Shown piece by piece: positions 30,818 to 30,900 of a stretch of 64,000 nt of DNA (its first letter is position 1; every line of letters begins with the position of its first letter). The position numbers and the translations under genes were made by a program. Below the pieces are notes generated by a model. The model was not told the DNA's origin. It worked only from the letters and a program-made list of their open reading frames with translations, and did no database searches. Source of the DNA: Escherichia coli. Lineage in GTDB: Bacteria; Pseudomonadota; Gammaproteobacteria; Enterobacterales; Enterobacteriaceae. The stretch lies in NCBI RefSeq assembly GCF_001677475.2, contig NZ_CP015229.1; one strand, written 5' to 3'.

Positions 30818-30900
30818 AAAGCCGGGTTTTTGGACTGACCCCATAAAGTTGGACACCCAACTGATTAAGGTGCAGTCCAACATATTCCCGGCTTTTTATT
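30818..30900. terminator. cassette C terminator whose hairpin loop carries a palindromic insert of about 51 bp
   Basis: AAAGCCGGG [tttttGGACTGACCccataaagttggacacccaactgattaaGGTGCAGTCCaacata] TTCCCGGCTTTTTATT; arms identical to the other cassette terminators. Confidence 0.55.
30830..30880. repeat. miniature inverted-repeat insert (MITE-like) inside the terminator loop
   Basis: Terminal inverted repeats TTGGACTGACC / GGTGCAGTCCAA; resembles the IS150-like terminal repeats at 35621 and 37052. Confidence 0.45.

Follow-up and report, generated by a model that had tools for sequence, protein, structure and literature searches.

In the 64-kb stretch of DNA analysed here (the window), a 49-bp insert sits at the apex of a terminator that is common to an orphan Rhs immunity-like gene on the plus strand and a symE-like gene on the minus strand. 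We read this insert, with a probability of roughly 0.8, as a non-autonomous mini-IS (a minimal MITE) derived from an IS150-group (IS3-family) IS with TGGACTG tips. The kind of element is known (MITEs and mini-ISs of the IS3 family), and its very small size and its landing at hairpin tips seem to be little described: on IS3/IS150 MITEs, on IS150-group minis of ~50 bp and on their targeting of terminators, nothing specific was found in the papers searched, which is weak evidence of novelty. Elements of ~50 bp can escape MITE finders and annotation pipelines, and none of the E. coli or plasmid copies of the 49-bp element carries an annotation. For this window the consequence is small, the insert being a neutral-looking fossil.

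The insert and its host terminator

Positions 30818-30900 of the window read AAAGCCGGG TTTT [TGGACTGACCCCATAAAGTTGGACACCCAACTGATTAAGGTGCAGTCCA] ACATATT CCCGGCTTTTTATT, the outer brackets enclosing the insert. The repeat finder identified the outer arms of this intrinsic, bidirectional terminator, AAAGCCGGG (30818..30826, plus strand) and CCCGGCTTT (30887-30895), as 9-nt, 100% complementary sequences 60 nt apart, and it also picked up the inner arms TTGGACTG/CAGTCCAA. The 3' arm (CCCGGC) and its T tract (TTTTTATT) occupy 30887..30900 (plus strand), and the resulting Rho-independent terminator, a 9-bp stem (GCCGGG/CCCGGC) followed by the T tract, begins 3 nt past the stop codon of the ORF at 30531-30815. 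What is left of the terminator loop is TTTT to the left of the insert (30827..30830) and ACATATT to the right (30880..30886). The promoter/terminator scan called the sister terminator at 28414-28446, hairpins with a 60-nt loop being beyond its reach.

The insert itself (30831..30879) consists of a left arm, TGGACTGACCCCATAAAGTTGGACA (30831..30855, plus strand), which is a terminal inverted repeat of the IRR type, and a right arm, CCCAACTGATTAAGGTGCAG plus TCCA (30856..30879, plus strand), which corresponds to the Shine-Dalgarno arm of an IS left-end hairpin with an IS tip at its end. The arms are 23-25 nt long, the tips (TGGACTG...CAGTCCA) are of the TG...CA type of the IS3 family, and the element has the features of a MITE in being small, non-coding and bounded by terminal inverted repeats. 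An orfA/orfB transposase with a programmed frameshift is absent and the 49 bp hold no ORF, so that the insert is classed as an IS derivative and not as an IS. It is unique in the window (0 matches by chance in shuffles). A sequence-only reading of this region had proposed that both terminator arms are intact with extra DNA inside the loop, which is borne out by the perfect arms, by the sister terminators and by an Rfam alignment (see below). Its estimate of about 51 bp for the insert has to be lowered to 49 bp (30831-30879), because it takes in a T and an A from the flanks, which pair by chance; T is the right flanking base in L001, an E. coli copy, which places the flanking pair outside the element.

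Rhs cassettes and insert-free terminators

The terminator ends a 94-aa orphan immunity-like ORF taken from the ORF list (30531..30815, plus strand), upstream of which lies a C-terminal fragment of an RHS core (28746-30518). Convergent on the terminator is a symE-like toxin gene (30903..31136, minus strand; NCBIfam SymE, E=1.2e-9, below the curated cutoff), the homologues of which in E. coli are annotated as SymE-family toxins. The RHS-core fragment and the ORF behind it identify the cassettes as Rhs orphan toxin/immunity modules that share a terminator with a convergent symE-like gene. Sister terminators without the insert, recognised by the shared outer arms, are present on the plus strand in cassette 1 (21173..21204), cassette 2 (25795..25828) and cassette 3 (28416..28444). 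The outer arms recur at 21173, 25795 and 28416 (0 matches in shuffles) with loops of 11-16 nt, compared to 60 nt at the insert-bearing terminator, and an identical symE 3' end (minus strand) lies downstream of all four terminators. The four Rhs-orphan cassettes are arranged in tandem at 20700-31200 of the window, with their terminators at 21173, 25795, 28416 and 30818. By its sucA gene, 99.1% identical to that of the best-matching genomes, the window belongs to E. coli.

Insert-free sites are known for both flanks of the insert. In E. coli 2012C-4221 (L134), a matching immunity-like gene is followed by the insert-free AAAGCCGGGAAGAAAATTAGAACTTCCCGGCTTT, and two other E. coli sequences (L128, L129) have the symE flank of the window with short loops (11-16 nt). 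Aligned across 30818-30900, the Rfam Ssr1 model has 5 nt where the window has 48 nt; Ssr1 is sub-threshold as a family, and its alignment can be taken as an independent view of the insertion. Sub-threshold matches to Ssr1 and isrA cover two terminator-symE units (28062-28707 and 30668-31166). An Rfam identity for the insert was rejected, the only candidates being these two sub-threshold families, both of which belong to the cassette/symE region.

The terminator with the insert was found whole, at the same place and with 93-94% identity, in 4 of 5,426 complete E. coli genomes (2014C-3338, JNE120442, 21F61 and JNEC-KY177); four further E. coli records, in which at least 80% of the 60-nt query was covered at lower identity, were left out of the inspection. 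In the four genomes, homology to the window begins exactly at the 5' terminator arm and another gene lies upstream, which indicates that the insert travels with the terminator-symE module. That the homology between strains stops exactly at the terminator arms suggests an exchange of modules at these points. The insert is a marker of the terminator-symE module, and it shows that the modules of the Rhs orphan array are bounded at terminators.

IS ancestry of the insert

With a query of 83 nt, matches of 46-47 nt to IS left ends were obtained in many E. coli genomes (95.7-95.8% identity, E ~1e-9 to 4e-10), and a query of 60 nt matched the right end of IS150 in K-12 (27 nt, 92.6%) and, over longer stretches, the left ends of other IS3-family elements. 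The inverted ends described in the sequence-only reading were thereby confirmed as TG...CA tips that match IS150-group termini well above chance (46 nt, 95.8%, E=4e-10). Nearest to the insert among the ISs is an IS3-family element of E. coli with TGGACTG tips (L130; 2012C-4221, NZ_CP027437 near 4,989,783), which is full-length and degenerate, followed by ISEcB1. RefSeq gives this IS no name and uses only the labels 'IS3 family transposase', 'transposase' and 'helix-turn-helix protein'; the E. coli copies of the L130-type IS that were inspected are pseudogenes.

The left end of the L130 IS reads TGGACTGCACCCCAAAAGTTGGACA-CCCAACTGATTAAGGTGCAG-TTTTTTATGGCAAAG, the last part being the orfA start, and its right end, read inward, is TGGACTGCCCCCATAAAGTTGGACAG. 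The left arm of the insert (its first 25 nt) agrees in 24 of 25 positions with the right-end repeat of L130 (TGGACTGCCCCCATAAAGTTGGACA) and has the same make-up as the IRR of ISEcB1 and IS150. The next 20 nt are identical to nt 26-45 of the L130 left end, after which L130 continues with TTTTTTATG (the orfA start) and the insert with TCCA. Rather than simply copying an IS right end, the right arm is thus identical to nt 26-46 of the left end of L130, the Shine-Dalgarno arm of a conserved hairpin there, and closes with a CCA tip; its reverse complement is the palindromised IRL of L003, L135 and L138. Together, the left end and the right-end repeat of L130 explain 45-47 of the 49 bases of the insert, and both L130 and ISEcB1 lie in terminator loops, as the insert does. 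The two ISs differ from the insert in their full length of ~1.4 kb, and in that the left end, after GGTGCAGT, enters the orfA start (TTTTTATG) where the insert has its CCA tip. Autonomous elements with matching ends, a further feature of MITEs, are thus at hand in the L130-type IS and, for relatives with TGAACTG tips, in ISEcB1. An IS circle junction with abutted IRR and IRL was rejected as an identity of the insert, since its tips would be central and those of the insert face outward.

Copies at unrelated sites

The 49-bp element occurs with unrelated flanks in Cedecea (L105), Photorhabdus (L088), a Proteobacteria MAG (L028) and megaplasmids of Pantoea agglomerans (L150, L151), as well as on metagenome contigs (L139, L140, L143-L146 and L148). 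An alignment (A1) of the window copy with 10 independent copies (11 sequences) is gapless, each being exactly 49 bp long. One copy per genome was seen in Enterobacteria. The Cedecea copy lies in a terminator loop and is flanked by a duplication of TTTC, and the copy in the Proteobacteria MAG also occupies a terminator loop.

The most informative copy, L144, derives from an Escherichia relative that is 92.5% identical to E. coli across dgkA-plsB-ubiA-ubiC-malM. It is located at the plsB/ubiA convergent terminator, GCCGGA-TAA-[49 bp]-TAA-TCATCCGAC (the right flank beginning with TCATCC), and the insert-free counterpart in E. coli reads GCCGGATGATCATCCGGC; the comparison identifies what reads as a clean insertion with a 3-bp duplication (TAA) at the hairpin apex. 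The suggestion that the insert is a MITE thus gained support, as it has IS-type ends and further copies were found at unrelated sites in other species, one of them with the TAA duplication and an insert-free counterpart.

In the two Pantoea megaplasmids and one metagenome contig (L150:1550-1610, L151:1550-1610 and L148:4407-4450), the sequence to the right of the 49-bp mini is shared (GTGAGCAGTCC.AAGTTTCCCCT.GAATTACG.CTCGCCGTTG) and that to its left differs. An HNH endonuclease gene is located near the mini, and another mobile unit may abut or target it there.

The insert shares with MITEPsy1 (100 nt, derived from ISPsy2, with a 4-nt duplication), ERIC, Correia and RUP elements a non-coding sequence, inverted repeats that match an autonomous IS and, in its relatives, target duplications (PMC3189936, PMC3184786). 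It differs from them in having about half the size of the smallest, in consisting of two repeats only and in its low copy number (one per enterobacterial genome seen). REPINs and REP doublets are likewise short, hairpin-forming and intergenic, and often lie at the 3' ends of genes, but REPINs are linked to RAYT (Y1) transposases and lack TG...CA repeats, and in Pseudomonas the REP pairs are targets of minis rather than their relatives.

Hairpin-tip targeting by the IS150 group

The L130 IS is inserted in the terminator loop of ugd (between AAAAAGCCCTCATCT and TCCATGAGGGCTTTTTTT) and ISEcB1 (L133) in the yfbM/nuoN terminator loop. IS1397 and ISKpn1 are specific for REP sequences and insert into the hairpin loops of REP/PU (PMC1525189, PMC3184786). 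These positions point to hairpin-tip targeting as a property of several IS150-group elements beyond IS1397 and ISKpn1, ordinary intrinsic terminators being included among the targets.

The window contains a copy of IS1397 (IS3 family, IS150 group) at 35621..37052 (plus strand), which is 98.7% identical to annotated IS1397, has its ends supported by an IR scan and encodes orfA/orfB that match IS3-family transposase models. It lies between the two halves of a PU/REP, GCCGGATACTGCGTGA and GAACGCCTTCTCCGGC, in agreement with the known REP specificity. At 35590-37194, the element was placed in the central loop of the PU/REP, with GCCGGATACTGCGTGA on one side and GAACGCCTTCTCCGGCTTGG on the other, and a REP-like sequence follows 3' of IS1397 at 37074-37194, with sub-threshold matches to Rfam ES036 and naRNA4. 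In their group, their arm pattern and their hairpin-tip target, IS1397 and ISKpn1 resemble the insert (PMC1525189, PMC3184786). They differ from it in being autonomous elements of ~1.43 kb with orfA/orfB that target REP, whereas the insert is 49 bp long, geneless and located in an intrinsic terminator, and its arms and spacer are nearer to another IS.

State of the window copy and its predicted effect on the terminator

In contrast to some of its relatives, the window copy has no 3-4-bp target duplication: its flanks are TTTT and ACAT in the window, and TTTT and TCAT in L001 (limits shifted by one base were also tried). The inner AAG/CTT part of the stem, present in insert-free terminators, is missing at the window site, which indicates that the site was altered beyond simple insertion and that the loop has been remodelled since the event. 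To the right of the insert, the loop reads ACATATT in the window and TCATATG in L001, a difference that shows the loop to be drifting. The insert is older than the ~5% divergence between the alleles of the window and of the four E. coli genomes. It is present once in the 64-kb window and, among the complete E. coli genomes, at a single inherited locus, as expected of a fossil rather than of an active multi-copy MITE. The window copy appears to be old, now inert and drifting, with a target duplication that was lost or never present.

Positions 30812-30906 are predicted to fold as one long coaxial hairpin, with -40.8 kcal/mol on the plus strand (z = -6.85) and -41.6 kcal/mol on the minus strand (z = -8.3), and on either strand none of 200 shuffles did as well. 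The expected lengthening of the terminator stem-loop by the insert is therefore predicted by RNA folding on both strands. The sole effect predicted for the insert is that the terminator becomes a coaxial hairpin of ~80 nt, in which the insert is stacked on the basal stem. Termination is probably retained despite the 60-nt loop, because neither the basal 9-bp G+C stem nor the T tract has been disrupted, and the two 3' ends may gain a little stability from the longer hairpin.

Origin of the insert and alternative explanations

The origin that we propose starts from the left end of the full-length IS, where the left repeat recurs in inverted form just before the orfA start codon, with the Shine-Dalgarno sequence inside this second copy. 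Such an SD arm repeats the right end in direct orientation (CCAACT...GCAGT in both). If the SD arm recombined with the right end, or slippage joined the two, the ~1.4-kb interior would be deleted and ~50 bp with both tips would be left. The composition of the right arm would depend on the point of the crossover: a distal crossover (GCAGT) would yield a copy such as L144, and a proximal one (CCAACT) the near-perfect IR-IR elements of the wider class described below. L144 consists of exactly nt 1-46 of the L130 left end plus CCA, as this deletion model predicts. The OrfAB transposase of the cognate full-length IS would bind the two terminal repeats of ~23 nt and move the element by IS3-family copy-out/paste-in, making a target duplication of 3-4 bp, with a preference of the IS group for the tips of DNA hairpins (terminators and REP/PU repeats). 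Mobilisation of the window copy in trans by such a cognate transposase would follow the same course. The window copy and L028 depart from L144 in having an IRR-type left arm and a right arm that comes from the IS left end; they are most simply read in reverse, as a palindromised left repeat (TGGACTGCACCTTAATCAGTTGG) plus G plus a right end, an alternative being a parent IS with an atypical left repeat.

Several observations weigh against the mini-IS reading. The window copy and L001 have no target duplication, the inner AAG/CTT stem part is gone from the window site, each enterobacterial genome seen has one copy (in E. coli at the one inherited locus, in 4 of 5,426 genomes), the cognate IS copies of E. 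coli are pseudogenes, and the combination of an IRR-type left arm with a right arm derived from the left end requires an unusual IRL or the reverse reading. A rival account is that a full-length IS150-group IS in the terminator loop lost its interior in place, by the same exchange between SD arm and right end, so that the 49 bp never moved as a mini. Full-length relatives do occupy terminator loops, the direct repeats that such a loss needs (CCAACT and GCAGT) are present in the SD arm and the IRR, and a single copy per enterobacterial genome agrees with it; the duplication around L144 does not discriminate, since decay would leave one as well. It is harder to reconcile decay in place with at least 10 unrelated sites that have exactly 49 bp and the same junction, with the 0 intermediate-length remnants seen at the 49-bp sites, and with the wider class, where at least 6 near-identical minis with duplicated flanks in one genome would be hard to produce by repeated identical deletions. 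We consider decay in place rather unlikely and lean, by a modest degree, towards an arrival of the window copy as a mini.

The remaining explanations have far less to recommend them. The sequence-only reading had likened the insert to the IS150-like element at 35.6-37.1 kb, and this likeness is real at the level of the family (the element is IS1397, of the IS150 group) but IS1397 is not the closest relative. That the copy of IS1397 5 kb away gave rise to the insert and mobilised it is improbable, even though both belong to the same IS group, the arm pattern TGRACTG..CC......GTTGGA is common to them (and also to ISEcB1 and IS150) and hairpin-loop targeting is known for IS1397 (PMC1525189): the tips of IS1397 are TGA/TCA and those of the insert TGG/CCA, the IRL arm matches in only 17 of 23 positions, the spacer of IS1397 is unrelated and longer (ATAATCTGACATCTGAAGG compared to CCCAACTGATTAAGG in the insert), and the tips, one arm and the spacer fit the much closer L130-type IS far better, and IS1397 was rejected as the parent for this reason. 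The insert also predates the window's present arrangement, for E. coli strains share it (93-94% identity). Marginally less probable still is an RNA structure selected by the host (an extended terminator, an RNase III site or an mRNA stabiliser) that merely resembles IS ends. A very stable hairpin is predicted on both strands in the 3' UTR of two convergent genes, as such a structure would require, but the three differences between the window and L001 in the predicted stems amount to one broken pair and two wobbles with 0 compensation, which together with the insert-free state of most alleles speaks against a selected role, and the IS ends explain the insert base for base. As for a chance palindrome, the loops of these terminators do vary in sequence and length, but this explanation is already refuted by the similarity statistics (matches to IS ends with E=4e-10, 0 matches in shuffles and fold z-scores of -6.9 and -8.3) and has a negligible probability.

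A wider class of 40-55-bp minis

Elements of the same build are not confined to the 49-bp type. With a loose pattern applied to a genome collection, at least 58 two-repeat (IR-IR) minis of 40-55 bp from many phyla were found among the matches listed, after ~10 chance non-palindromic matches (e.g., L017, L053 and L075) had been set aside; counts per taxon are no census. Their hosts, again among the matches listed, include Pseudomonas (in or beside REP pairs), Cupriavidus, Paraburkholderia, Achromobacter, Sinorhizobium, Bacteroides and Neobacillus. Exact duplications of 3-5 bp flank 26 of these 58 minis (mean 1.6 and maximum 8 with randomly re-paired flanks), and perfect flanking stems of at least 6 bp surround 20 of the 58 (control 2.9). 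In one Paucimonas MAG, at least 6 near-identical minis are located at different sites, with duplications in 5 of the 6 that were scored. From the duplications, the flanking stems and the multi-copy MAG, the minis of the wider class appear to transpose as minis, and ~50 bp (two repeats) apparently suffice for the persistence of an IS3-family element and, in some genomes, for its multiplication. Minis of 51-53 bp inside or adjoining REP pairs (...CTCCCACAGG, mini, CCTGTGGGAG...) were observed in the Paucimonas MAG (L119-L125) and in Pseudomonas (L097-L099, L008-L009, L029-L031 and L117), the same target logic as that of IS1397 in the PUs of E. coli.

The IS left ends among the matches listed come from Neisseria, Haemophilus, Chloroflexi, Firmicutes, Bacteroidales and Proteobacteria. 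In them, an inverted copy of the left repeat comes after the repeat and holds a Shine-Dalgarno sequence directly before the orfA ATG, and an alignment of 13 such left ends from several phyla has a conserved hairpin of 16 pairs with 2 compensatory pairs. This SD arm may give a simple structural reason for the recurrent origin of minis. We tentatively propose, at less than an even chance, that the window copy belongs to a pan-bacterial and largely undescribed class of IS150-group MITEs of minimal size (40-55 bp), which consist of two repeats, home to hairpin apices (intrinsic terminators and REP pairs) and are repeatedly regenerated via the built-in SD-sequestering arm, a single slippage being enough to reduce an IS of 1.4 kb to a mobile element of 50 bp. 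If this is true, minis of 40-55 bp would contribute generally, and so far unnoticed, to the variation among terminators and 3' UTRs of bacteria; as they are unannotated and easily overlooked, their contribution to this diversity is uncounted.

In IS150 of E. coli K-12 (L006:2880-3000), no inverted SD arm comes after the left repeat, and the left-end hairpin is therefore not shared by the whole group. In some full-length ISs, a variant of IS1397 among them (E. coli SCPM-O-B-8794, L071:11342-11393; Arthrobacter cheniae, L048-L050), the SD arm already ends with ...GCAGTTCA, which overlaps the ATG; the first ~52 bp of such ISs form a complete TG...CA repeat pair that might be used directly by the transposase. 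One IS remnant at a fimbrial/ABC-transporter locus of E. coli was met in two states when L131/L132:2001-2046 were compared with L003:1501-1546, one with a normal left repeat and the other with the inner half of the repeat replaced by an exact complement of the SD arm, so that a perfect palindrome results. The rewritten (palindromised) left repeat is present in L003, L135, L138 and L142, also at another locus, and it looks like a quasi-palindrome correction by template switching.
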